Origin: a virus | Taxonomy: Duplodnaviria > Heunggongvirae > Uroviricota > Caudoviricetes | Reading direction: 5' to 3' (one strand) | Virus record (IMG/VR): IMGVR_UViG_640753024_000005 | DNA: 12,112 nt | In this document: positions 1 through 12,112 of the stretch, piece by piece | Layout: every line of letters starts with the position of its first letter | Numbering within the stretch: the first letter of the stretch is position 1 | Program-made: the position numbers and the translations under genes | Notes under the pieces: model-generated | Seen by the model: only the letters and a program-made list of their open reading frames with translations | Database searches by the model: none | What the model was told of the DNA's origin: nothing

Positions 1-696
1 TCACTTAGGGTATGGCTGAACCCTGAATAGTTTGGTATTTAGCCGCTTCCTTGCTCGCTTGTTCAGGAATCTGATGTAGCGATACTGATTAAATTTGTGC
101 GCCACGGCACGCTCTTTATTAGCCCGTAAATACACGCCTCGTTGTCCACCCCGCTTAATCGCGTTCATCGTTATCTCGTGATACCACTCACCATCCAGCT
201 CGTAGAACGTGCTTTCATGGCTGCCAATAAAATCAAAATTCGACGCCTGATACACAACGCCTGCGCGTCCGCAGCGTTCGTCAGCAAATGACTGAACCCA
301 CTCCACTGACGGATACAGTAATCTGATAACTTTCAGCGCGTAGCTGATGGCCCGTGATTCAGAGTTGCGGGGCATGTCGTCGTGTAGCCACATGCGATTC
401 AACTCCATATAGCCCCGGTTATCCGTTTCAAGCACGACACGACGACCTGAGTTGGGGTTAAGGGCATATCCCCACTGGAGAACGCCAACCAGATCGCGTC
501 CGCTGAATACTCCCAGGTGGAGGTAAGAGTTATTCACAAAACGGCGGGAATAGTGCTTTGTCTGAATAATTGTGCGGGCCAGCCAGCAGGATATGGTTTC
601 AACGCGCAGTTCCTTTGAACCATAGCCAACAATCTGGCCTTCATACTCAATAACGCACGGTTTCGTCAGAATGCGTGATTTTTTCTCTTTTCCCAC
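1..696 (-). CDS. mom: Mom DNA-modification protein; proposed GTG start at 696-694 giving 231 aa (alternative upstream ATG at 726-724 gives the 241-aa ORF in the track)
   Basis: ORF-track protein recognised as Mu Mom from memory. It sits at the extreme right end next to com and gin, as in Mu. A GGAG (707-704) lies 7 nt upstream of the GTG. The 231-aa length matches my recollection of Mu Mom; start choice is uncertain. Confidence 0.85.
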
Positions 697-835
697 AATG
701 TTTCTCCGTGGGATGCTCGCAGGCATTCAGCATTATGATGTGACGTTTGCAACGCGGACACCTGATTTCAATGTGATCAAAGGAATCCGCCTTAAATAAC
801 AGTTTGTTGCAGTTTTTACAGCGAATTGATTTCAT
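647..835 (-). CDS. com: Com, zinc-finger translational activator of mom (62 aa)
   Basis: 62-aa ORF with a CxxC...CxxC arrangement (CKNC ... CPRC). Strong AGGAGG 4 nt upstream of the ATG. Its 3' end overlaps the mom 5' end by about 50-80 nt. Size and position match Mu com. Confidence 0.9.
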
Positions 836-946
836 CTCACCTCCTTTGCATCAATTCGCCACTATCTTAAAAAACATCGTGGGTTGAGTGTGGTTATTGG
901 GGCATAATCGATCTGTATTACCGATCGATTCAATTGATTCGATCGT
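836..946 (-). promoter_or_regulatory. mom operon promoter/regulatory region: three GATC (Dam) sites, T6 tract adjoining a TAAGAT -10-like hexamer
   Basis: GATC at 910-913, 923-926 and 941-944, spaced 13 and 18 bp, two within CGATCG palindromes. A6 run at 869-874 (T6 on the mom sense strand) abuts a TAAGAT hexamer (864-869 reverse complement). In Mu, Pmom is repressed by OxyR at unmethylated GATCs and activated by C protein. Exact -35 and C-site not resolvable by eye. Confidence 0.6.
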
Positions 947-1511
947 CGTTTTCTATATGCGTTCGTTTGGCGGGGTGTTTTTTATACAGCGTTGACAGGG
1001 CCACATCGTAGATCAATGCGACCTGCTTGCGGGGGATTCCTTGTGCTAATAAACGCCCGGCCTGCTCCCATTCCGCTTTGGTTAGTTTAGGTGGTCGCCC
1101 ACCGATACGGCCTTTATTTCTGGCAGCAGCAAGTCCAGCCATCGTTCTCTCGATGATTAGTTCTCGTTCCATCTCAGCCAGGGCACCCATAACGTGGAAG
1201 AAAAAACGCCCCATTGGAGATGACGTATCAATACTGTCAGTAAGACTGCGAAAATTAATCCCTCGCTCTCGTAATTCCCCTACGAGAGAAATCAAATGTT
1301 TCATGCTTCGCCCGAGGCGATCCAGTTTCCAGACAACCAGTGTGTCACCTTTTTGAAGACGCTTTAAAGCGCGTTTTAATCCAGGTCTGTCTGTCCTTGT
1401 TCCGCTTAATTTATCTTCAAATATTTGTTCACATCCTGCACAAACAAGAGCGTTTCGTTGCAGGTCTGTATTCTGGTCATTTGTTGATACCCTTACATAG
1501 CCAATCAGCAC
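930..1511 (-). CDS. gin: Gin serine DNA invertase (193 aa), GTG start with GGGAG Shine-Dalgarno
   Basis: Protein begins MLIGYVRVSTNDQ with the catalytic Ser of the resolvase/invertase family and has a C-terminal HTH region. It lies directly next to an invertible segment flanked by gix-like repeats. Start codon is GTG (1511-1509). Confidence 0.95.
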   Translation of the reverse strand: MLIGYVRVSTNDQNTDLQRNALVCAGCEQIFEDKLSGTRTDRPGLKRALKRLQKGDTLVVWKLDRLGRSMKHLISLVGELRERGINFRSLTDSIDTSSPMGRFFFHVMGALAEMERELIIERTMAGLAAARNKGRIGGRPPKLTKAEWEQAGRLLAQGIPRKQVALIYDVALSTLYKKHPAKRTHIENDDRIN

Positions 1512-1565
1512 TCTGGATCTCCCGTTTAAAAGCGCAAATCATGCCATGCAGGCCGGAAACAGCCA

Positions 1566-1599
1566 TTATCTAAAACCTCGGTTTACAGGAAACGGTAAA
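1566..1599. repeat. gix recombination site, right copy (34-bp inverted repeat; 26-bp core 1566-1591)
   Basis: ttatctaaaacctcggtttacaggaaacggtaaa equals the reverse complement of 4504-4537 at 33/34 positions. The core has the 12-2-12 architecture of Gin/Hin sites, with central dinucleotide at 1578-1579. Confidence 0.9.
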
Positions 1600-2530
1600 T
1601 CAGGCTTCTGGTGCGTTGCAGAAAAACCAGAATGGCGCAGATATTCCAAACAAAGATAAATTTACGCAAACAATAGGTGCTTGCCGCTCTTTTCATGGTG
1701 CTATTAGCACAGGTGCAGGAAACTGGACGACGGCACAATTGATTGAATGGCTGGATTCTCAAGGGGCATTCAATCACCCATACTGGATGTGCAAATGTTC
1801 ATGGTCATACGGCAATAATAAAATTATTACCGATACTGGCTGTGGAACTATTCATCTTGCAGGTTGCGTTATTGAGGTTATGGGTAATAAAGGAGCCATG
1901 ACCATCCGTGTAACCACCCCGAGCACTTCCAGCGGTGGCGGAATTACTAACGCTCAATTCACCTATATTAATCATGGTGATGCTTATGCTCCTGGCTGGC
2001 GACGAGACTACAACACGAAAAACCAGCAGTCTGCATTTGCTTTAGGGAAAACAGGAGGCACTGTCGGAAATGATAAAGCTGTTGGCTGGAACTGGAATAG
2101 CGGGGTCTATAACGCAAATATTGGTGGCGCAACGACATTAATCCTCCATTTCAATATGAGCGAGGGGAGTTGCCCTGCCGTACAGTTCCGTGTGAATTAT
2201 AAGAACGGCGGTATTTTTTATCGTTCAGCACGTGATGGTTATGGCTTTGAAGCTAACTGGTCAGAGTTTTACACCACAACACGCAAACCCTCTGCGGGAG
2301 ATGTTGGTGCATATACGCAGGCAGAATGTAACTCAAGGTTTATTACAGGTATTCGCCTTGGCGGTCTGTCATCTGTTCAGACATGGAATGGTCCTGGCTG
2401 GTCTGACAGGTCAGGTTATGTCGTTACAGGTTCAGTTAACGGAAACCGTGATGAATTAATTGATACAACTCAGGCAAGGCCAATTCAGTATTGCATTAAT
2501 GGAACGTGGTATAACGCGGGGAGTATTTAA
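1574..2530 (+). CDS. Sv', silent alternative variable part of tail fibre S (no start codon of its own in this orientation)
   Basis: Open frame begins right after the TAA at 1571-1573 inside gixR and runs to TAA at 2528-2530. C-terminus (NGNRDELIDTTQARPIQYCINGTWYNAGSI) is paralogous to the S C-terminus. The TTG start in the ORF track (1616) is not a real initiator. Confidence 0.7.
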   Translation, partial: NLGLQETVNQASGALQKNQNGADIPNKDKFTQTIGACRSFHGAISTGAGNWTTAQLIEWLDSQGAFNHPYWMCKCSWSYGNNKIITDTGCGTIHLAGCVIEVMGNKGAMTIRVTTPSTSSGGGITNAQFTYINHGDAYAPGWRRDYNTKNQQSAFALGKTGGTVGNDKAVGWNWNSGVYNANIGGATTLILHFNMSEGSCPAVQFRVNYKNGGIFYRSARDGYGFEANWSEFYTTTRKPSAGDVGAYTQAECNSRFITGIRLGGLSSVQTWNGPGWSDRSGYVVTGSVNGNRDELIDTTQARPIQYCINGTWYNAGSI

Positions 2531-2532
2531 TT

Positions 2533-2598
2533 ATGATGCACTTAAAAAATATTACTGCTGGCAACCCTAAAACAAAAGAGCAATACCAGCTAACGGAA
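2533..2598. repeat. Internal inverted repeat inside the G segment (U' 5' end), partner at 3557-3622
   Basis: First 66 nt of U' and U are 64/66 identical in inverted orientation. A further 23/24-nt identical block follows (about 2638-2661 versus about 3500-3522). Confidence 0.85.
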
Positions 2599-3066
2599 CG
2601 ATTTAACATCAAATGGCTTTATACAGAGGATGGGAAGAACTGGTATGAGGAACAAAAGAACTTTCAGCCTGATACGTTGAAAATGGTCTATGACCACAAC
2701 GACGTTATTATTTGTATTGAAAAGGATGTTTCAGCAATTAATCCAGAAGGCGCAAGCGTCGTTGAATTACCTGATATTACAGCAAATCGCCGGGCTGATA
2801 TTTCGGGTAAATGGATGTTCAAGGATGGCGTAGTGATAAAGCGAACTTACACCGAGGAAGAACAGAGGCAGCAGGCAGAGAATGAAAAGCAAAGCCTGTT
2901 GCAACTTGTCAGGGATAAAACCCAGTTATGGGACTCACAGCTACGGCTGGGCATCATTTCCGACGAGAATAAACAAAAATTAACAGAGTGGATGCTCTAT
3001 GCGCAGAAAGTCGAATCTACAGACACCTCCAGCCTGCCAGTAACGTTTCCAGAACAACCAGAATGA
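2533..3066 (+). CDS. U', silent alternative tail-fibre assembly protein (177 aa)
   Basis: Starts [22 protein letters not shown], identical to the N-terminus of U on the other strand. Conserved ANRRAD motif. GGGAG upstream of the ATG. Confidence 0.8.
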   Translation: MMHLKNITAGNPKTKEQYQLTERFNIKWLYTEDGKNWYEEQKNFQPDTLKMVYDHNDVIICIEKDVSAINPEGASVVELPDITANRRADISGKWMFKDGVVIKRTYTEEEQRQQAENEKQSLLQLVRDKTQLWDSQLRLGIISDENKQKLTEWMLYAQKVESTDTSSLPVTFPEQPE

Positions 3067-3094
3067 GACAAGGCCCGCTATCGGGCCTTAATTT

Positions 3095-3622
3095 TTATTC
3101 AGGCTTTTGTGGCCATTCAGGATTTGCCGTATCCACACGGCTGACCAGAACACTGTAGCGCTCCCATGCTTCCAGTCGGCTACGCTCCTCATCTGTTGCC
3201 ATGTTCAGCCTGACAGCGCGTTCCAGTGGCTGAATAACGCTTTCTGCTTCAGAAAGCAACGCGGCCTTTTGTGATTCGGCCTGTTGTTGCAGTTCCTGTT
3301 CTGTATATTCCCTCTTTACTACTTTACCATACAGAAACATCCATTTTCCGTTATTGTCTGCGCGACGATTTGCCGTAATATCAGGAACTTCAACTATGCT
3401 TAGCCCTTCAGGATTAATAGTTGAAACGTCTTTACTGACAGCAACGATGATGTTGTTCTCATCGTAAGCAATTTTTATGGTGTCTGGCTGAAAATTCTTT
3501 TGTTCCTCATACCAGTTTTTGCCATCTTCGCAAAAGAGCCATACCACGCCCGCTTTTTCAGTTAGCTGGTATTGTTCTTTTGTTTTAGGGTTGCCAGCAG
3601 TAATATTTTTTAAGTGCATCAT
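3095..3622 (-). CDS. U: U tail-fibre assembly protein (175 aa from the MMHLK start)
   Basis: Paralogue of U'. The ATG at 3622 lies 1 nt after the S stop (3624-3626). The 12 extra N-terminal residues in the track's 187-aa ORF overlap S and are not credited. Confidence 0.85.
3557..3622. repeat. Internal inverted repeat inside the G segment (U 5' end), partner at 2533-2598
   Basis: See partner entry. Confidence 0.85.
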
Positions 3623-3623
3623 C

Positions 3624-5033
3624 TTAAACACTCCCCACGTTGTACCATATTCCCCCAATCAATTTCTGAATTGGCCTTCTGGCAACAGTGTCGACAAGAT
3701 CATCCGCATTGCCGTTAATTGCGGCTGTTAAAACATAACCTGACGCATCGCCAAAGCCGTAGTCGCGCCATACGTTTTTATATTCAATGCTGCCAAGACG
3801 AATATCCCGAACGACATGATTATGCAGCCATGTGCTTAACCAGTTGTTTCCCCACACTGAACCATAAATATCGCCACTAGACGCAACTTGCGCACCACTT
3901 CCCAGCGCAAATCCCCCATCTGTTTTAAAAATGAAATCACCACCACCATCTGAACCGTTATTAATATGAACACCATCACCACCGTTATCTTTCCACAAAA
4001 ACATACGAATACTTCCGTCTTCGTTGGTGAATGTAATGTGGTGGCGGTAATTACTTTTTAATCTAAAAGCGCTGCAATTAGATTCAATATCTTTATAAAG
4101 ATGTAATCCTAACCCATCAATATGTCCGATGCGCGAACCATTTGAATAGAAGCTAATAATACCATCTCCATCTTGCCTAAATCCGGTGTCGTTATCTCCC
4201 AGAACAATGGAGTTTTCACCCAGTGCGTTATCAGTAGCACCAATAGCTAGACCTCCTTCAATTTTGGCCCCGTGGCTGACATATATAGCACCTGTTCTTA
4301 GATTTATAGCGAATGGCCTTAATGGGCCGATATCACCGTTTTCGCCTTGTCCTTCAGCCGTAGGGATGAAATGAAGGGACTCTTCTGAACGGCGGAAAAT
4401 AAGACCGAAGGCATCATTAAAAATTCGCAGCGCATTCATCGTTCCAATTTTCAGTTCTCCGGTCATTTTATCGCCGGAACGCTGAACGGCGTTACCAGCC
4501 TTGTTTACCGTTTCCTGTAAACCGAGGTTTTGGATAAACAGCGGCTTATTGGGAATATCTGCTCCGTTCCGGTCTTTTGCCAGACGGGCATTGGCATTAT
4601 CCATCGCAATTTTCACCGCTTTTGCGGTGGCTGCCAGCGTTTCACTGGGGCTGTCAGTGGCACTGGTTAGCTGAACGAGTCCTTTTTTGTTCAGGCTGGC
4701 ATCATAGATATCCAGATTTTCACGTGCTGTACGCTGTGCTGATGCCCCGGCAGTTTTAATTTCGCTGAGGTTATTTTTTATCAGCAGCGCGTTATTGCTC
4801 ATAATGGCTTTAATGGACAGTGCAAGCTGGTTTAATTTTGTTTTATCCGGTTGAATACCGGCTTCTTCCAGCGTGTTTAATAACTCCGCCTGCACAATAT
4901 TAAACCAGTCCATGCCGGGCCATGTGATAACATTATTCCCGTCACCTTCTGAAAACCAGCGAACGATAGCACTACGCTGGGCGGATACGGGCGGCATGAT
5001 GGTTACGCCGCTGTCGTTATCAATATAAAACAT
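3624..5033 (-). CDS. S: Tail fibre protein S (469 aa): constant part Sc (5033-4538), gix-encoded linker, variable part Sv (4503-3624)
   Basis: Long ORF crossing gixL in frame, with gly-rich fibre-like repeats in the variable part and a conserved C-terminal motif shared with Sv'. Its ATG overlaps the stop of the upstream gene (TAATG at 5035-5031). Confidence 0.9.
4504..4537. repeat. gix recombination site, left copy (34-bp inverted repeat; 26-bp core 4512-4537), embedded in the S reading frame
   Basis: Core ttcctgtaaaccgaggttttggataa with central GA at 4524-4525. In the S frame it encodes [12 protein letters not shown]. Confidence 0.9.
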
Positions 5034-5575
5034 TAGTTATCTCCGTCATGGTAAACAAATTTATAAATCTGATGCGCGGGTTTATATTTCTCCAGTAAAC
5101 ATTCCAGCGCACCCGATTCATAAACACGTAACGGCGTCAGAACATTATCCAGCACCGTTGCGTTGCGATAATTTTTAATACCGTAAATATTGACCTGCGT
5201 AACCCACTGGCCTTCTGTGGAATCCGTCAGCCTGACGGTAAAACCGTACTGCGCAGCCAGCCATTCATAAAAGCGCCGACTCAGATTGCCGGTCATACGC
5301 ATTTTATTCGCGGCAGCCCGCTGGCGTTCGGACAGGGTGCCGTTTTCGCTGGTACAGTCAGGCAACCCCAGAAATGATTCCCACTCCCCCAGATACCAGC
5401 GGGATGTGGACGGGAAACGCTCCCGCAGCATTTGCCGCGCATCATCCGCCGCAGCGGCAATCACGTCGCTGATGGCCTGCGCCAGCGCAGATAATTTGCT
5501 GTCGGGGCTTTTATTCCAGGCAAGCCCTGACGGCAGTAATTGCAGAAAGGCCGTCTGATAGGGTGTTACAGCCAT
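5033..5575 (-). CDS. R: Baseplate wedge protein, Mu gp48 equivalent (180 aa)
   Basis: Position immediately upstream of S and exact length match to Mu gp48. Overlaps the W stop by 10 nt. Assigned by synteny and size, not by a recognised motif. Confidence 0.75.
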   Translation of the reverse strand: MAVTPYQTAFLQLLPSGLAWNKSPDSKLSALAQAISDVIAAAADDARQMLRERFPSTSRWYLGEWESFLGLPDCTSENGTLSERQRAAANKMRMTGNLSRRFYEWLAAQYGFTVRLTDSTEGQWVTQVNIYGIKNYRNATVLDNVLTPLRVYESGALECLLEKYKPAHQIYKFVYHDGDN

Positions 5576-6648
5576 TCAATTGTCCCCGGTGTTAACAGTT
5601 CCGTATTCTCCGAACGCTGGATCTCTGTCGGGAAACGCACTTCAAAATCATCCAGACCGGTAACACCTGCCACCGCACGGATAATACGGGAGGGGGCAAG
5701 TGCGCCGCCCGGCGTCACCTCATTAAAAAACATGGTATTAATGGCGTGAGTAATAGCCTGTTTCAGTTCGGCTGTCTTCGGTGATATATAAATCCGTGGA
5801 TTTACCGGCTTTGCCTTTGCCGCAAATACCGTGACATTTACACCATCAGGCTGTCCGACAATCAGACCAGTGATCGGGTCAGTATGACCGGCGATATAAT
5901 CCGCCACGCGTTCCACGTCTGCCGGTTGTGGAAAAATATTGCTCCGGTTATCCATAACAAACGTCACCCCGACTGTGCCACCGCCTTTCCATGTCGGAAA
6001 ACACCAGGCACGGGTAACGCCGCTGACTTCACGCGCCCAGCGAACATAATCAAACTGATTACCGCCGAACGGAGGATACTGGACACGATATTCCAGCCGT
6101 GACAGCAGCTCCGCTGCACTCTCAATATCAGCCCCACCGGAAAACCCTTTTACAGTGATGGCATCGGAAACAACACAGGCAACCGGGGTGATCAACGTTA
6201 AAAGGGTATTCTCACCGGTATTTCCTGCCTCACCGGCAGCCAGTGCGGTAACGGTAATTTCCGTCGTTCCTGCACGGTCAATCACAATGGCATCAGCCAG
6301 GCTGTAAACCACACCATCAGCACGCTGCCAGCGTGTACCGGCAGGAATGGTGGTCGCTGCCGATGTGGTGACAGTCAGCGGGCCGCTGGCGGCTGTCGCC
6401 TGTTTGCGGCGCACGCCCCAGAACCGGCAGTGCTCCAGCAACTCATCTTCATCTGCTGTCGACGGGATAATCTGCCGTCCAACCCATGAAATATGCTCGT
6501 GACAACCGGCAGCAAGGCCCGCCTGAGCATAAGCAATGGCACTCAGCGTTTTTTCACGGGCCTGAGGCCAGCTACCCGGCAGGCGCTGTTCAATATTCTG
6601 TTCTGTACGGGCAATCAGCGATGATAATGTCGGTGGTGAATAAGCCAT
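5566..6648 (-). CDS. W: Baseplate protein, Mu gp47 equivalent (360 aa)
   Basis: Synteny and exact length match to Mu gp47. Directly abuts the preceding gene (6649/6648). Confidence 0.75.
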   Translation of the reverse strand: MAYSPPTLSSLIARTEQNIEQRLPGSWPQAREKTLSAIAYAQAGLAAGCHEHISWVGRQIIPSTADEDELLEHCRFWGVRRKQATAASGPLTVTTSAATTIPAGTRWQRADGVVYSLADAIVIDRAGTTEITVTALAAGEAGNTGENTLLTLITPVACVVSDAITVKGFSGGADIESAAELLSRLEYRVQYPPFGGNQFDYVRWAREVSGVTRAWCFPTWKGGGTVGVTFVMDNRSNIFPQPADVERVADYIAGHTDPITGLIVGQPDGVNVTVFAAKAKPVNPRIYISPKTAELKQAITHAINTMFFNEVTPGGALAPSRIIRAVAGVTGLDDFEVRFPTEIQRSENTELLTPGTIEWL

Positions 6649-7086
6649 TTAAACCCCGTTAAATGCTGCTTTAAACTCATAAGGAATAACGGAACCATCC
6701 GGTAATGTCAGTGCAATGTAGAGGTATAACCAGCCCTGATGTAACTGTTCCGCTCTGACGTTAATCGCACTTACCCGGCCCGCTGTTTTCAGCCATTCCA
6801 GCGCCTCTTCGGCATACCCTCTGGCGCGTTCCAGCGTATCCGGTGTGGCTTTTTCACGTGATAACAGCCACAACCGCGAACCGATGGGGCGGTCGCGGTA
6901 ACTGTCACCCCACCATCCACGGCGATCATCTGAACCATCCGGCAGCGTGTCAGAATCCAGCGCGCGCCGGTCTGTAAACAGGGAGATTGTCACATCGGTT
7001 GTCAGGCTGTCGTCGGTCAGCATGTCAATGCCATCCTGTGCAATATCGCCGCGTCCGTTCGTCCAGATAATGGCTAAATCGGTCAT
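6649..7086 (-). CDS. V: Baseplate protein, Mu gp46 equivalent (145 aa)
   Basis: Synteny and length. ATGA start/stop overlap with the upstream gene at 7086-7083. Confidence 0.75.
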   Translation of the reverse strand: MTDLAIIWTNGRGDIAQDGIDMLTDDSLTTDVTISLFTDRRALDSDTLPDGSDDRRGWWGDSYRDRPIGSRLWLLSREKATPDTLERARGYAEEALEWLKTAGRVSAINVRAEQLHQGWLYLYIALTLPDGSVIPYEFKAAFNGV

Positions 7087-7676
7087 TGCATTGGCCCCGT
7101 GGTTCCGCCGCTGTCGCCACGGTGGATATGCTTATCCGTCGATTTGCCATTGATGATGGCATCCGGGGCAGTAATATTGCTGTCGAACTGGCTTTTACCT
7201 TTAACGCCCAGACCTTTCTGGATCTCAACGTCGCCGGTAAACGTGGTTCTGGGTGTGTCAACGGTCATACTTTCATCAGCGTAAACCTCAACCGTTTTAC
7301 AGGTAATGATGCAGCGTCCGTCCTTTGTCAGCCGGATACGATGCCCCTCATGGTGGTAAATGCCTGCATCACCCGGTTCAAGATTTGTCGGGCGGTAGCG
7401 GCGGTCTTCCACCACAACGGCGATCCCCTGATCACGTTGTGCACCCACACAGGCAATCAGCGCCTCTGCGCCCGGCAGGGGAACGCTGAAATGTCCGTAA
7501 TTTTGCAGGCGCTCCACTTCATCGGATTCCTCATCATCCAGCAGACCGACCTGCAGGTTCTGAACCTTTCGCCCGTCGTTAATCACGTTAACAACAGCGC
7601 GCGCAAGCATCAGGCGCACACGACGCATCAGCGGCGTCAGCAGGCGGTTCAGGGCGGAATCATTTACTCTTTCCAC
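7083..7676 (-). CDS. Q: Baseplate central spike, Mu gp45 equivalent (197 aa)
   Basis: Synteny and length. His-rich C-terminal tip (KHIHRGDSGGTTGPMQ) fits a metal-binding spike apex. Overlaps the P stop by 13 nt. Confidence 0.75.
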   Translation of the reverse strand: MERVNDSALNRLLTPLMRRVRLMLARAVVNVINDGRKVQNLQVGLLDDEESDEVERLQNYGHFSVPLPGAEALIACVGAQRDQGIAVVVEDRRYRPTNLEPGDAGIYHHEGHRIRLTKDGRCIITCKTVEVYADESMTVDTPRTTFTGDVEIQKGLGVKGKSQFDSNITAPDAIINGKSTDKHIHRGDSGGTTGPMQ

Positions 7677-8803
7677 GGCGGCGTTTTCTCCGGGTGTCTG
7701 CGATAATAATCTTCAACCAGCGCATCAATACCGCCGTTACTGTCGCCGCCTTTCCTGTTTTTACGGTCGCTTTCAACCGGCACCAGAAAGCCTTCGCGTG
7801 GTGCAAGGCTGACGCGGGTTTTCAGCCCGTCCTGGTCATTCAGTATCAGGGTGACTTTGCTGGCCAGTAATTCCGTGGTTTTGATGGCATATTTCGAGGC
7901 ATCAATAGTGACCAGCAGGTTCGGCATCCAGAGTTGCCCGTCCTTGCGAGTCCATCCGTCAATTTCAGCCTCAAAGGTGATGGATTTTGCCAGTCTGCGG
8001 CGTTGCTCACGCAGGGCGCGGGCCTGTGCATCCTTCGCCGTAATTTTGCTGTCGGCAATGATGATCATCGGTCTGTAACGGGTCACATCACTGTCAGTGG
8101 CGGTCCCTTTCCGGGAGACGATACTTTTCGCATCAATATCATCACCCTCAGCACCGTTTGCGCGGGCATACCCCTTGACGGTGTATTCGCTGAACCGGTC
8201 GCGGAAGTCTTCCTCAAAATCCAGTGTCAGCAGATTTTCTCCGAGAACCAGCTCATCAGTGGCTGTGCTGGCAGCCCGGCTGAATACCAGCTCTCCGGCG
8301 GCATTGCTGGTCATCAGTACACCGCGTGCGCGGGAGGCACGCACCAGCGCCTCATAAACGGTTTCTGAATGGTCCAGCGTGAAGCCGGGAAAAGCTGCCG
8401 AACTTTCCTTATCGGAAAGCTCCCAGCGAACGGTAACGCCATAAGGGGTGCACAGGTCACGCGCAATCTGCTCCAGTGTGCGGTTTTTCCACTGTCCGCC
8501 ACTGTAAACGGCAGCACAGTCAATCAGGTCAGCCGTTTTGTCACGTCCGGCGACAGTGATTTTCATACTGTCAGCGGTCATCTGGCGTCGCCGTGAATCG
8601 ATATAACCGGTGCAGACAATCTGCCCCCCGATTTCGAGCGTGAACGCCTTCCCCGGTGCCAGCCCGGATAAATCCGTGCCCGGTGGCACGTTCACCCCCA
8701 GCTCAAAATATCCGGCTACGGATTCAATGGAGCGGGTGACAGAGACTGACGTCCAGCCGGTAAAAAGCCTGCCATCCGTTCGCAGCGTGACGGTATTACT
8801 CAT
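7664..8803 (-). CDS. P: Baseplate hub protein, Mu gp44 equivalent (379 aa)
   Basis: Synteny and exact length match to Mu gp44. ATG at 8803-8801 preceded by GAGGTG and overlapping the stop of the B'-remnant fusion ORF. Confidence 0.75.
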   Translation of the reverse strand: MSNTVTLRTDGRLFTGWTSVSVTRSIESVAGYFELGVNVPPGTDLSGLAPGKAFTLEIGGQIVCTGYIDSRRRQMTADSMKITVAGRDKTADLIDCAAVYSGGQWKNRTLEQIARDLCTPYGVTVRWELSDKESSAAFPGFTLDHSETVYEALVRASRARGVLMTSNAAGELVFSRAASTATDELVLGENLLTLDFEEDFRDRFSEYTVKGYARANGAEGDDIDAKSIVSRKGTATDSDVTRYRPMIIIADSKITAKDAQARALREQRRRLAKSITFEAEIDGWTRKDGQLWMPNLLVTIDASKYAIKTTELLASKVTLILNDQDGLKTRVSLAPREGFLVPVESDRKNRKGGDSNGGIDALVEDYYRRHPEKTPPWKE

Positions 8804-9146
8804 TAATCACCTCAATACTGACACCACCGGGAACAAACAACGGGTTGCCACATACAACAGCAATACTTTCAGTCAGGCTGGCAAAACGCATACTTGTCCA
8901 GATTTGTTTTACCGTCTGCGTTTCCACAAAGCGGGGCGGTTCAGGTAGTTCTGCAACTGCATGATATTTTTCCAGCCAGCGTTGCAGCATTTGTGAAACA
9001 CGCTCGTTATCCCCGTTGTACTTATCATTGATAAAACTACTGATAGTTCCGGTAGAAAGTCCGCTCTCAAGAGCAATTTGTTTAAAGGTGGTTTCTTCAT
9101 TTTCTACAAGCGTGCGCAGTCCTGCGCGAATATCGGAAATATTCAT
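8796..9146 (-). pseudogene. B: Truncated B (target-DNA activator, AAA+ ATPase): residues 1-102 retained, fused in frame to a 14-codon remnant (LFVPGGVSIEVINE) that I infer to be the 3' end of gene N
   Basis: ORF starts MNISDIRAGLRTLVENEETTFKQIALESGL, recognised as the Mu B N-terminal domain from memory. Homology stops at ...VVCGNP (8849-8841), exactly where Walker A (GNPGVGKT) should continue. The ORF ends 14 codons later, overlapping the P start. Confidence 0.85.
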
Positions 9147-9184
9147 CTGAATAACCTCGTAATTAAATTTTGTTTAAACGTTAA

Positions 9185-11173
9185 TTAAATGGCTTTTTTA
9201 CGTCTGTTCTGTTCCAGAATATCCAGCGAATGATTCAGATATTCATCACGCTCAGTTTCGTATTCATCATCACGCTCCTGATTCTTCACCCGTTCCGTAT
9301 TACCGGAAGGCCGGAAAATGCCGACAATTCGTGATTCTGGTGCTTCAGGTTCGGCTATCTGCGGCAGCAGCTCTGCCACTTCCAGTGCATCCATTTGTTT
9401 TTGTGCCTTAATCGCTGCTTTCGTCGCAGATTTCAGTTGTTTCTGGCGGCGGCGATATTCACGGCCTGCCGCAGCATCATTAAACGCAACAGGTGCCAGA
9501 CATTCCGCTTCACAGATAAACCGACCGTCCAGGGTGTAGCAATAAACCGTGCTGTGTAACTGCTGTGGATCAAATCTGACCACAACTTTTTTCACTCCGG
9601 CATTCATTAACGCCATGTTGTAATAAACGTTTTTCGCACCTTTAAGGGAGCCGCCAACTTTAAGCGCGAACTCGCCTTTACGTGAAACGTTCACCGCCTC
9701 GGCAGGCAGTAACAGCATCCGTTTTTGCTCTTCGGTAGGCTTACGCACAATCGTTCTGGCGTATTCACGCTCAAAAACGTCATCAAACGAAAGTTTGCCT
9801 CCGCACATTTCTGTTTCACGGCCTGTTCTGGCATTGAACATCGCCACACCTTCGGCAAGGGTTTTCAGAAACAGCTCTGCATCAACAGCGCGGTCGCCAT
9901 AGTTATCAGGTTTTGCCTGCGGATTTGGCCCCGTATATGCGCCAGCCAGTGCCGGATGCTTATCAACGTATTCCTCAAGCCCACCAACACCGAAAGCACG
10001 TTCAACAGGTTTTGCCTGGCCCCAGCCTTTACCGGCAACAACGCTTGTCCAGTGCATTTTCGCGCCCATCAGTAAAAACAGTCCCTTTGGATCGTCCTCT
10101 TTTACCTTAAAGCGGTAACGATTGGGCGCGCCCCCCGTCAGCCATTTATTCGCTGCACCACGGGTGTTATCAATGGTGATGTGAAAATCCTCCGGGATGC
10201 CGTAGCGTGTCACCACATCCATAAACGAGAGGCGAATTGAGTCGATGTTCTCGCTTACATCGCAGCGCCAGCCCAGAATTTTTCGGGTTTTCACATCCTG
10301 CCAGAACCATGTTTTCGGGCGGATCACATCACCGTTAAACCAGCGTACAAAGACGTTATGCAGATAACCGTCGCCGTTGATCCACTGCATGGCGTCCAGG
10401 TGTTCCACAGTTCGCTGCTGTGCCGGTATCAGATGCATCAGTGCATGTTCACCTTCACGACAGGCAACAACCATTGCCTCGTCCAGTTGCTGAATCCGGC
10501 GAAAGGCCGTGGCACGGGAGGGAATACTCCAGCCATGCTCGCGGGCTGCCAGTTCCAGACGCTCATAACATTTGCGGAAGGCGGGCTTTTCCGGTCGCAG
10601 ATAATCTGCAATCAGAAACTGCCAGGCATCCTCGTCAAATTCACTTTTGTGAACGTTGCGACGGGATGCACCACGTCCATCAACAAGCGCAGCCGCCCAG
10701 TCAGGCTTCGCAAACTTCTGTACCTGGTAATACTTGTCCCGCAAAGTGGATGCGCTGACCTGGTAATGCCCAGCAACGGTCGCAAAAGCCGTTTTTGTTG
10801 AAATCCCCTGGTTCAGCATTTCGTCTGCAGCCTGAACCGCAGGCAACCATTTTTCAGCAAGTCTGCGCTGGGAATCGCTGGCGTTATCCCATTTGCTCCA
10901 CAGTGCCTCACGATCATAATCATGGGCTTCCAGCGTGGGGCGGGCGATTTCAAAATACCCCTGACTTGTTTCAATTCTCCCTTGTTGCAACAGAATTTCA
11001 GCACGTAATGCGACAGGGAATGATTTGATATTGAATTCAAATGATACACCTTTAGTCCCTGCAACCTGCCTGAACTCCCAGCCTTCTCTTTGTGCCTTAC
11101 GTGTAATGTTAGTGGCTTGCTTTGGTAAACCTGCCAAACCGAGCAACTCTTTTGCTGTATACCATTCTTTCAT
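9185..11173 (-). CDS. A: DDE transposase A (662 aa), apparently intact
   Basis: Recognised from memory as near-identical to MuA from about residue 65 onward. Catalytic DDE contexts present ([40 protein letters not shown]). N-terminal 60-65 residues differ from MuA as recalled and resemble the c repressor N-terminus. Confidence 0.95.
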
Positions 11174-11180
11174 AGCGCAC

Positions 11181-11402
11181 CTAGTATCGAGACGGCCAAA
11201 TATCTTGCGGTGTCATTCCCAGTGCATCTGCAATGATTTTCTCCGCTTTCGGATATCTCTTATCCAAAGCATTTTTCAATGTTGAAGACGAAAGATGATT
11301 AGATCTTCCCAATTCAGCTAGTGACATATTGCGTTTTCGTAGCTCTGCAACGATGTCAGCTCTGTGCCAATCTTGGCGGTTAGTTCTTTTATTCATATGC
11401 AT
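11181..11402 (-). CDS. ner: Ner-family early regulator (73 aa; possible start at the third Met, 11396)
   Basis: Small basic HTH protein with the DWHRADI...LSSSTL...IWPSRY signature shared by phage Ner and E. coli Nlp. Sits between the operator region and A. Looks D108-type rather than Mu-type from memory. Confidence 0.85.
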
Positions 11403-11587
11403 TTCATGTAATCCTTTCAGATTCCCCCGTGAGCTACGCTATAAAGTAGCTCACGGCATATCGTGCAATGTAGTGTGGAATCACTCTCAAATCAATAGGG
11501 ATTTGAAAGGATTTGCCATGATTTCATATAACGGCATGATTTTTATATGAATTTATTTTGTCTCTATTGAAATCACTAGGATTTTAA
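11403..11587. promoter_or_regulatory. Divergent early (Pe, leftward) and repressor (Pc, rightward) promoter/operator region
   Basis: 185-bp AT-rich intergenic region between divergent ner and c. Candidate leftward elements: TTGCAC (11463-11468 rc), 17 bp, TTTATA (11440-11445 rc), or TTGATT/TACATT further upstream. Candidate rightward elements: TTGAAA (11503-11508), 18 bp, TATAAC (11527-11532). All weak matches, unverified. Confidence 0.5.
11427..11456. promoter_or_regulatory. Perfect inverted repeat, likely Ner operator: ccgtgagctac - 8 bp (gctataaa) - gtagctcacgg
   Basis: 11-bp arms at 11427-11437 and 11446-11456 are exact reverse complements with an AT-rich 8-bp spacer, 25 bp upstream of the ner start. 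Matches my recollection that D108 Ner binds 11-bp inverted repeats. Confidence 0.6.
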
Positions 11588-12112
11588 ATGATGTCTTTTG
11601 AAATCAAAGAATGGTTTAATGCGAAAGAGCTGGAAGGGATGCCTGGTGTACCAAAGTTGGCGACTAACATTACCAGGAAAGCTGTGGCGGAAGATTGGGT
11701 AAAACGTCAGCGTCACGGTGGGAAAGGTGTCGCTTATGAGTATCACATCAACAGTCTGCCAGAAGAAACACGCAGGGCCATTAAAGGTGCCTCACTTTCT
11801 GATAAACCAGTGCATACATCAATCGCCCATACAGTTGATGAGAGGCTAATTTATGCAATGAGCTTTTTAACACCAGATGAGCAGGCCGCAGCTGTGGAGA
11901 TCATTCGTGTAGCAGGGATTAAAGGACTTATGCCTACAATTGTCAGTAAAGATAAGGCATTAGAGGCATTAGGGATTACTGTGGAGCAACAGAAAACCCT
12001 GCAAACTCTTCAAGCATTACCACCGGAAAAAGTAAGAGAGATTTTGTCTCAGTATGAAGGCAAAGAACATAATTTCCCTGTAAGAGAAAACGATGTAAAG
12101 AAAGCTGTATAA
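11588..12112 (+). CDS. c: c repressor (174 aa), immunity repressor of the transposable phage
   Basis: Divergent from ner-A across the operator region. Its N-terminal region is about 50% identical to the A N-terminal domain (shared [16 protein letters not shown]), the known repressor/transposase paralogy in Mu-like phages. Confidence 0.8.
   Translation: MMSFEIKEWFNAKELEGMPGVPKLATNITRKAVAEDWVKRQRHGGKGVAYEYHINSLPEETRRAIKGASLSDKPVHTSIAHTVDERLIYAMSFLTPDEQAAAVEIIRVAGIKGLMPTIVSKDKALEALGITVEQQKTLQTLQALPPEKVREILSQYEGKEHNFPVRENDVKKAV

Follow-up and report, generated by a model that had tools for sequence, protein, structure and literature searches.

A probable deletion-derived natural mini-Mu in Escherichia coli E24377A with phage baseplate and tail-fibre genes behind the early operon

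Introduction

In phage Mu, the baseplate and tail-fibre genes P through U belong to a late operon that depends on the activator C. In the stretch of DNA analysed here (12,112 nt, hereafter the window), the same genes reside directly downstream of ner, transposase gene A and a truncated B gene (B′), which raises the question of how, if at all, they would be transcribed. A first-pass annotation had proposed that this operon was rewired onto the early transcript. The sequence premises of that proposal all hold, but the functional arrangement that it implies is improbable, given that the junction occurs in a single strain. The best overall explanation, to which we assign a probability of roughly 0.7, is that the locus is a deletion-derived natural mini-Mu in which P-U were left behind the early operon as a by-product of decay.

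Identity and gene content of the element

The whole window matches E. coli E24377A (CP000800.1; BLAST) at 100% identity and is enclosed there by a D108/Mu-type prophage of 12,566 bp, which spans 1,062,187-1,074,752 with its left end at ~1,074,752. Both TG..CA ends of this prophage are intact and carry MuA-binding sites. The opening bases of the left end (TGTATTGATTCACTTGAAGTACGAAAAAAACCGGGAGG...) are the same as those of Mu and D108, and the terminal sequence of the right end (...CGTGCGCCGCTTCA) agrees with Mu across the last 60 nt. The immunity (left) end is of the D108 type, whereas the right end is of the Mu type. A 5-bp target duplication, GCCGA, is present on both flanks inside ssuA. These ends and this duplication, in addition to a DDE transposase A and divergent c and ner genes, are those of a transposable Mu-like prophage. 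One copy of the element was seen, at a single site, and its insertion has probably inactivated ssuA with polar effects on ssuDCB. The host, E24377A, is a clinical ETEC strain that has been used in human challenge.

The genes retained in the window (Table 1) are close relatives of those of known phages, with mostly 98-100% protein identity to D108/Mu among c/ner/A, P-48, gin, com and mom, and c, ner, A and P through U are all full length. The product of c, which is divergent from ner, matches Pfam HTH_Tnp_Mu_1 (E=3e-51). Relative to D108 there are 2 substitutions in the repressor and 7 in the c-ner spacer, and the 28 nucleotide differences in A are all synonymous. The P protein aligns with PDB 1wru over residues 1-379 (E=4e-250) and contains GpP-like and Gp44-like Pfam domains. 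The constant N-terminal part of S is D108-like, while its variable part is divergent, and the nucleotide match to D108 ends at window position 4483. The invertible G segment holds this variable part of S along with U, U′ (2533-3066, + strand) and S′ (1616-2530, + strand).

Table 1. Features of the window, with coordinates counted from its first nucleotide.
Feature	Position	Strand	Description
c repressor, D108 immunity type	11588..12112	+	174 aa, full length; 98.9% aa identity to D108 c (174/174 residues)
Early promoter Pe, predicted (TTGATT-17-TACATT)	11467..11495	-	65-70 nt upstream of ner
ner	11181..11402	-	100% aa identity to D108 Ner; Pfam HTH_35
Transposase A	9185..11173	-	662 aa, intact; 100% aa identity to D108 A; Pfam DDE_2, Mu-transpos_C
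B′-N′ fusion ORF	8796..9146	-	116 aa; MuB 1-102 + N C-terminal 14 residues
P (gp44), baseplate hub	7664..8803	-	379 aa, intact; 98.9% identity to D108 P
Gene 45, baseplate spike	7083..7676	-	Full length; 99% identity to D108 gp45; Pfam Phage_Mu_Gp45
Gene 46, baseplate wedge	6649..7086	-	100% identity to D108 gp46
Gene 47, baseplate wedge	5566..6648	-	99.7% identity; Pfam Baseplate_J
Gene 48, baseplate wedge	5033..5575	-	99.4% identity
S, tail fibre	3624..5033	-	469 aa; 49.7% overall identity to D108 S
U, tail-fibre assembly chaperone	3095..3622	-	175 aa; 82% identity to D108 U; Pfam Caudo_TAP
GC-rich hairpin between U and U′	3070..3089		Likely 3′ end of P-U transcript
Invertible G segment	1566..4537		41-nt inverted repeats 1566-1606 and 4497-4537
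gin invertase	930..1511	-	193 aa as in Mu; 99.5% identity; Pfam Resolvase
C-binding box of Pmom (TTATGCCCCAATAA)	894..907	-	Same sequence as annotated Mu Pmom
com	835-647	-	100% identity to D108 com
mom	726-1	-	98.3% identity to D108 mom

At 12.6 kb, as opposed to the ~37 kb of a viable phage, and with an incomplete morphogenetic and lysis set, the element is not a viable phage. Both ends and A are kept and the centre is lost as one block at a single junction, which is the structure of a mini-Mu.

A single deletion joins B to N

BLAST comparisons with D108 and Mu yield two collinear blocks that abut at window positions 8845-8848 (CP000800.1 1,071,146-1,071,149), equivalent to a junction of 3607 with 27692 in D108 and of 3659 with 27643 in Mu. 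The missing DNA thus corresponds to one deletion of ~24 kb (Mu 3660-27642), spanning B codon 103 to N codon ~481. Direct three-way alignment places GCAA, a 4-nt microhomology common to B and N, at the junction on the - strand. Here, B codon 102 is fused in frame to the final 14 codons of N. The MuB part of the resulting protein (residues 1-102) does not differ from PDB 8xvb or from D108 B, and the N part comprises the last 14-16 residues with 100% identity and in the native frame. The MuB AAA+ target activator is therefore incomplete, being cut between GNP and GVGKT of a motif (GNPGVGKT) that we take to be the Walker A motif. In GenBank, the fusion protein is entered as WP_024184896.1, a ‘hypothetical protein’.

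The boundary between the fusion ORF and P preserves the native arrangement. The N remnant ahead of the P ATG (8803-8801) measures 41 nt, or 45 nt counting the microhomology, so the 42 nt reported in the first-pass annotation is right within the ambiguity of the junction. At ATGAGTAA, the TAA stop of the fusion (8798-8796) overlaps the P ATG just as N and P overlap natively, and together with the gene order this bears out the earlier description of P-U as lying directly behind ner-A-B′ on the same strand with a coupled stop and start. The Shine-Dalgarno sequence of P, GAGGTG (8813-8808, - strand), can be read directly in the sequence; the ribosome binding site of P is annotated at 27678-27682 in Mu. 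No new terminator or structure was found at the junction, where RNA structure has a z of +0.76.

These features suggest that illegitimate recombination at the 4-nt microhomology removed ~24 kb, from B codon 102 to 41-45 nt before the P start. Such an event would have taken kil, gam, mor, C, the lysis, head, sheath, tube and tape-measure genes and most of N, together with Pp, the promoter that depends on C, and all terminators annotated in the interval, and would have left c, ner, A, the B′-N′ stub, P-45-46-47-48-S-U, the invertible G segment, gin and com/mom. Consistent with this, searches of the window by tblastn with D108 C, mor, kil, gam, lys, sheath L, tube and tape-measure returned no match. 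Because ~24 kb including mor, C, the structural genes and Pp is gone, the element is without virion formation and without a middle or late transcription cascade. Baseplate and fibre products cannot form a particle in the absence of tube, sheath and head. A tailocin was also considered for this locus and rejected, as the element has no sheath, tube, tape-measure or lysis genes.

Loss of C-dependent late control

According to the annotation of AF083977, which cites a 1989 paper for its position (Margolin et al.), Mu Pp occupies 27287-27353 and the P ATG is at 27688, so that Pp extends from 401 to 335 nt upstream of this codon. The retained block begins at Mu 27643; therefore Pp has been deleted. 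The earlier reading, in which the P promoter had resided within the end of the upstream gene and was now lost, is thus correct as to the loss but not as to the location: within the DNA now deleted, the native Pp lay another ~290-360 nt upstream of window positions 8800-8900. In Mu, the C-binding site is centred at -43.5 with a footprint from -30 to -55, and without C, Pp yields no productive transcription (PMC2582627, PMC4461284).

Neither the activator nor its target at Pp remains in the window. Searches by tblastn with the D108 proteins detect no C gene, in agreement with the first-pass annotation, and no mor gene. The closest full-length relative carries a conserved C box (CCATAACCCC) ~390 nt upstream of P that is absent here, and a search of the - strand from 7700 to 12112 found no C-box match, with the Pmom site recovered as a positive control. 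Hence, P-U cannot be assigned to the C-dependent Mu late operon, since a dyad (TTAT-N5-6-ATAA, CCATAACCCC) paired with a -10 hexamer is lacking upstream of P. A looser pattern, TTAW-N5-6-ATAA, matches within B′ (9034-9022) but has a low information content, giving 4 matches per strand of which one alone is a known site.

A path from the early promoter to P-U

The top sigma-70 match of the entire - strand in a weight-matrix scan, at 11.55 bits, is the predicted early promoter Pe. Its placement parallels that of the annotated Mu Pe (991-1028), which ends 71 nt before the ner ATG at 1099. Downstream on the - strand, the genes follow one another in the order ner, A, the 116-aa ORF, P, 45, 46, 47, 48, S and U, down to position 3095. 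All 5 terminators annotated between B and P in Mu (starts 7839, 9179, 10383, 17908 and 20068) are within the deleted interval. A consensus scan of the - strand from 7600 to 12112 found no promoter-like or terminator-like sites, simple scans of this kind being blind to Rho-dependent terminators and to weak or atypical promoters. Near P (8750-9400), the weight-matrix scan revealed nothing above 7.3 bits as a substitute promoter; this score belongs to a weak promoter-like match in the AT-rich A-B spacer (9166-9138). No Rfam family scored above threshold anywhere in the window. The arrangement is accordingly that of an operon fusion, with a promoter upstream, all genes on the same strand, and no recognisable terminator before the distal genes.

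Since P-U lack both a promoter and an activator of their own, and no promoter-like or terminator-like site was recognised between Pe and P on the coding strand, read-through from Pe is the only expression route with sequence support. We infer that any P-U expression would proceed solely via an early-promoter transcript of ~8.4 kb. In a lysogen, the intact c repressor would hold Pe off, and P-U would for this reason normally be silent. Upon derepression of Pe, polymerase starting from ~11460 should continue via ner, A, B′-N′ and P...U to the hairpin at 3089-3070, producing a transcript about as long as the early RNA of Mu itself (from Pe near 1028 to the terminator at 9179-9200). Translation of P would then rely on the Shine-Dalgarno sequence that it has kept, and Ner feedback would presumably keep the transcript level low. 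The hairpin is a strong terminator for the + strand, and D108 carries annotated terminators on both strands at this position. However, the T-tract is weak in the - direction, and the 3′ end of the P-U transcript is consequently uncertain.

Alternative explanations

A second possible input, overlooked in the earlier description, is the promoter of the host ssuEADCB operon, which is induced by sulphate starvation. With the insertion located within ssuA, ssuE and ssuA directly precede the Mu left end and share the strand of ner-A-P...U, and a scan from ssuE to ner revealed no terminator-like site on the + strand except for a weak one where ssuE begins. Conceivably, ner-A-B′-P...U could be transcribed mainly from this outside promoter, in an RNA that would cross the truncated ssuA and the left end of Mu, run antisense to c, and reach the early genes and those of the baseplate. 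Such transcription would collide with converging transcription of c and with operator-bound repressor, and the ssu promoter is off under sulphate-replete growth. Furthermore, an ssu-driven RNA would still cross the early operon, and would therefore extend the read-through model rather than replace it. We consider it unlikely that this is the main source of P-U transcription.

Somewhat less probable still is that P-U, or at least S-U, are driven independently of Pe by cryptic constitutive promoters in the retained Mu sequence. There are moderate sigma-70-like matches on the - strand at 5049-5022 (ATGACG-16-TATATT), 5023-4996, 5960-5933 and 6953-6925. The first of these, at the 48/S boundary, scores 9.5 bits and could permit some S/U expression without Pe. 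Nevertheless, promoter-like sites do not exceed the shuffle expectation (2 vs 5.0 and 8 vs 10.1), and in the weight-matrix scan the 350 nt preceding P contain no good score. The candidate promoters are also present in wild-type Mu/D108, where the late genes require C (PMC2582627, PMC4461284). A match to the C-site consensus in B′ (TTAT-N5-ATAA, 9034-9022), the only one to the dyad pattern on the - strand between 7700 and 12112, might likewise suggest a C-type promoter, but it was rejected because it has no -10 at the proper distance, is native MuB coding sequence, and would need a C protein that is not encoded here.

It is improbable that the element is a still-mobile mini-D108 whose P-U genes, under the repressor and Pe (possibly also the ssu promoter), are expressed without cell killing and serve some useful purpose. 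Were this the case, the divergent S/S′ fibres might be supplied to related Mu-like phages by phenotypic mixing or, alternatively, packaging of the mini-Mu by a helper phage might mobilise adjacent chromosomal DNA.

The chances are slimmer yet for a selected, domesticated module in which the host or the element retains baseplate and invertible fibre genes under early (repressor) control, for example as a source of alternative fibres for related phages. It could be argued in favour of this idea that the seven P-U genes are all undamaged, as are the G segment, gin and mom, that the fusion is in frame, and that the variable part of S is unlike those of both D108 and Mu. Yet intact genes are expected soon after a deletion, and an in-frame junction has a 1-in-3 likelihood by chance. 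Without sheath, tube and tape-measure genes there would be no tail-like particle, and the C protein of a co-infecting phage would be unable to activate P-U because Pp is gone.

The distribution of the junction also argues against domestication. Neither the junction nor a Mu insertion at the ssuA site was found among 5,426 complete E. coli genomes (0/5,426 for each), and the junction has no match in PLSDB plasmids, GTDB species representatives, IMG/VR or JGI metagenomes. The fusion protein is known only from E24377A and from one identical SRA assembly (SRR9425412). Confinement of the junction to one strain, with no conservation of junction or insertion, gives no sign of selection, and a conserved architecture maintained by selection was given up as an explanation when no other carrier emerged from the collections searched. 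A single-strain junction is more in keeping with a recent, accidental deletion than with a circuit under selection. An assembly or cloning artefact is hardly credible, for the finished GenBank chromosome and the independent Logan assembly of SRR9425412 are 100% identical across the junction over 10,893 bp, and the junction combines a clean microhomology with an open reading frame.

Relationship to known elements

The closest full-length relative found is a D108-like prophage that occupies yidA, rather than ssuA, in E. coli FDAARGOS_1058 (NZ_CP065970.1). It is 99.88% identical to the element over the c-ner-A-B′ block (4 of 3,271 nt differ in this left block) and 98.95% identical over the N′-P-S block, but it is full length (~37 kb) and retains B, mor, C, N and the C box of Pp. 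Similarly, the late operon of Mu from P onward has the same structural genes, gene order, ribosome binding site and stop/start overlap as the element, but also possesses a promoter, a C-binding site, a ~345-nt leader and an activator gene, all four of which the element lacks.

Laboratory mini-Mus of the Faelen/Toussaint and Casadaban types keep both ends, c, ner and A while their centre is deleted, as is the case here; their packaging needs a helper phage, and their transposition is less efficient without B. Unlike these constructs, the present element is natural and keeps the full right arm of baseplate, fibre, G, gin and mom genes, fused in frame behind B′. It may thus be viewed as the natural counterpart, in an ETEC strain, of the laboratory mini-Mu. 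A literature search for a published description of this element or of natural mini-Mus found nothing relevant. Another point of reference is e14 of E. coli K-12, a defective prophage that, like the element, keeps a serine invertase (pin) and invertible fibre segments. In contrast to e14, the element also keeps a transposition module, five baseplate genes and both transposon ends.

On the reading that we favour, in which a natural mini-Mu arose by deletion, one microhomology-mediated event can shift late structural genes of a transposable phage to early transcription under the control of the repressor. The element is nonetheless an ordinary single-strain product of prophage decay and not a new kind of system. 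Its significance beyond annotation is small, and read-through, if confirmed, would provide a teaching example rather than a new mechanism. With respect to annotation, WP_024184896.1 should read as a MuB(1-102)-N(C-terminal) fusion remnant, and the element as a defective D108-like prophage.

Outside P-U, the C-binding box of Pmom persists although the element has no C gene.

Element and insertion site

An exact-sequence look-up of the 116-aa fusion ORF that directly precedes P returned E. coli E24377A (CP000800.1) and one Logan contig (SRR9425412). CP000800.1 contains the entire window at 100% identity (window position w is position 1,062,301 + w of the record), and the contig, an independent assembly, is 100% identical across 10,893 bp, junction included. 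When the surrounding 20-kb locus (L003) was compared with D108 and Mu by BLAST, a 12,566-bp element (L003 6696-19261) stood out, with a canonical Mu left end (TGTATTGATTCACTTGAAG...), a Mu-type right end (...CGTGCGCCGCTTCA) and a perfect 5-bp duplication, GCCGA, on both flanks. The element is a mosaic, in which a D108-type immunity region and A N-terminus contrast with a Mu-matching right end. That end (L003 19146-19261, beyond the window; compared with D108 36697-37143) lacks the D108-specific gene 56, and its last 60 nt match Mu; gin encodes 193 aa, as in Mu, versus 197 aa in the D108 annotation.

It is bordered at one end by ssuE and ssuA and at the other by a luciferase-family gene (ssuD). 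The insertion borders (L003 6691-6700 and 19257-19266; CP000800.1 about 1,074,752 and 1,062,187) lie just beyond the window, and the prophage interrupts ssuA in its 3′ end, at about codon 294, in the orientation of ssuEADCB. Because SsuA is truncated and 12.6 kb separate ssuDCB from its promoter, E24377A may be unable to use aliphatic sulphonates.

Deletion junction and gene content

The reverse-complemented window aligns with D108 340-3607 (window 12112-8845) and then with 27692-32057 (window 8848-4483); on the Mu genome the first block ends at 3659 and the second restarts at 27643. This alignment confirms the observation behind the first-pass annotation, that the baseplate and tail-fibre genes P to U have been placed behind ner-A-B′. 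Side by side, the changeover falls at a GCAA common to B (..TGTGGCAATCCTGG..) and N (..TATCAGCAACCCGTT..), which, as read from the alignment, is a signature of microhomology-mediated illegitimate recombination. The B′-N′ fusion is in frame, so the ORF terminates at the native N stop, which overlaps the P start codon (ATGAGTAA); same strand, gene order and stop/start overlap are as the annotation described, and its figure of 42 nt for the surviving upstream gene holds within the microhomology ambiguity (41 to 45 nt of N before the P ATG).

Genes were identified by tblastn with D108 proteins as queries, a search that gave no match for kil, gam, mor, C, lys, sheath L, tube or tape measure. Residues 1-102 of the fusion ORF agree with MuB (8xvb) at every position, and P aligns over 1-379 with the Mu gp44 baseplate hub of known structure (1wru; E = 4e-250). 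Relative to D108, A carries 28 nucleotide differences, all synonymous, and the 185-nt c-ner control region seven substitutions, among them three A-to-G changes (11488, 11486, 11484) in the spacer of the predicted early promoter, Pe. The FDAARGOS_1058 prophage, its nearest relative of full length, shares 99.88% identity with the first block and 98.95% with the second; since the former figure extends over the whole first block, most of these differences are probably lineage variation rather than post-deletion decay.

Features of the element in window coordinates, with amino acid identity to D108
Feature	Position	Identity	Extent or remark
c		98.9%	full length
c-ner control region	11403-11587
TTGATT-17-TACATT	11495-11467		putative Pe
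ner		100%	full length
A	9185-11173	100%	full length
Fusion ORF	8796-9146 (-)
B		100%	residues 1-102 only
N		100%	residues 480-495 only
P Shine-Dalgarno, GAGGTG	8813-8808		retained
P ATG	8803-8801
N stop, TAA	8798-8796
P	8803-7664	98.9%	full length
45		99.0%	full length
46		100%	full length
47		99.7%	full length
48		99.4%	full length
48/S boundary	4996-5086 (-)		putative sigma-70-like cluster
S		49.7%	full length; constant part conserved, variable part divergent
S variable C-terminal part	3624-4483
U		82%	full length
U/U′ hairpin	3089-3070
U′		97%	full length
S′	1616-2530	87%	full length
G inverted repeats	1566-1606, 4497-4537		41 nt
gin		99.5%	full length
com		100%	full length
Pmom C-binding box	894-907 (-)
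mom		98.3%	241/245 residues

Loss of late control

The first-pass annotation held that P in Mu has a C-dependent promoter within the upstream gene, and that this promoter, its C-binding site and the C gene are missing here; each point is borne out. The curated Mu record AF083977, which annotates four C-dependent late promoters (citing PMID 2522923), puts the P promoter, Pp, at 27287-27353 inside N; the P ATG, at 27688, lies 401 nt downstream of the start of Pp and 335 nt downstream of its end. The C protein recognises a 16-bp dyad whose centre is at -43.5, its footprint reaches from -30 to -55, and Mu late promoters lack -35 hexamers (PMC2582627); without C, Pp gives no productive transcript (PMC4461284). 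The retained N block begins 290 nt past the end of Pp, so the deletion has taken Pp together with its C site and the greater part of the leader.

All four Mu late promoter sequences share a CCATAACCCC-type box. A C-box search of the window recovered the Pmom site (899-890) as a positive control and none on the - strand across 7700-12112; the FDAARGOS_1058 prophage, in contrast, has a C box about 390 nt upstream of P. A palindromic TTATCAATGATAA in B′ (9022-9034) fits the loose C-site consensus TTAT-N5-ATAA but belongs to the native coding sequence of MuB, lacks a -10 element at a suitable distance, and is probably a chance match.

Proposed transcription of P to U

P to U lack both the cis and the trans parts of late control and are physically joined to the ner-A-B′ transcription unit. 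The deleted interval contains all five of the terminators that the Mu annotation places between B and P, and a consensus scan found no promoter-like or terminator-like sites on the - strand across 7600-12112. In a weight-matrix scan, the top - strand match of the entire window sits at the position expected from the annotated Mu Pe, and nothing in 8750-9400 exceeded 7.3 bits, the best matches there being AT-rich A-B spacer sequence shared with the wild-type phage. RNA around the new junction is no more stably folded than shuffled sequence (z = +0.76), and the first strong hairpin downstream is that between U and U′. The 48/S boundary holds a cluster of moderate sigma-70-like matches (up to 9.5 bits), AT-rich and native to Mu.

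Expression of P to U would then need Pe, which the intact repressor c would hold off in the lysogen. Derepression would yield an RNA of ~8.4 kb, similar in size to the early transcript of the native phage, at a level that Ner feedback would keep limited. The proposal that these genes ride on the early transcript is correct as to structure; its functional side is a prediction from sequence. With tube, sheath and tape measure missing, the products would be unable to assemble a tail, and no function is implied for them. Because the host ssuEADCB operon aims into the left end in the orientation of the early genes, and no convincing terminator was found between it and ner, the ssu promoter could read into the prophage under sulphate starvation.

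Distribution

The junction occurs in 0 of 5,426 complete E. coli genomes, although in 88 of them Mu-like B and P sequences are present, apart from each other, and was not found in plasmids, GTDB species representatives, IMG/VR or JGI metagenomes; none of the other complete genomes carries Mu at this ssuA site. The fusion protein (WP_024184896.1, "hypothetical protein") comes from the E24377A genome alone, and we found no published description of the element. Confinement of junction and insertion to one strain suggests that the deletion is strain-specific and probably recent, and these searches, all pointing to a single strain, gave no sign of an adaptive arrangement. The element is a defective, internally deleted Mu prophage, of a sort already known, to which laboratory mini-Mu derivatives also belong.

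G segment and mom

The G segment is intact. The variable part of S matches neither D108 nor Mu at the nucleotide level and, together with the divergence of S′ and U, gives a G-segment fibre pair unlike those of the reference phages. The Logan contig (L004) ends inside the left inverted repeat (L003 14645, window 4502), which could reflect mixed G orientations, and thus active Gin, in the sequenced culture, or equally a k-mer repeat break. The element keeps com/mom and the C-binding box of Pmom intact but has no C gene, so mom should be silent unless C is supplied in trans by another Mu-like phage.
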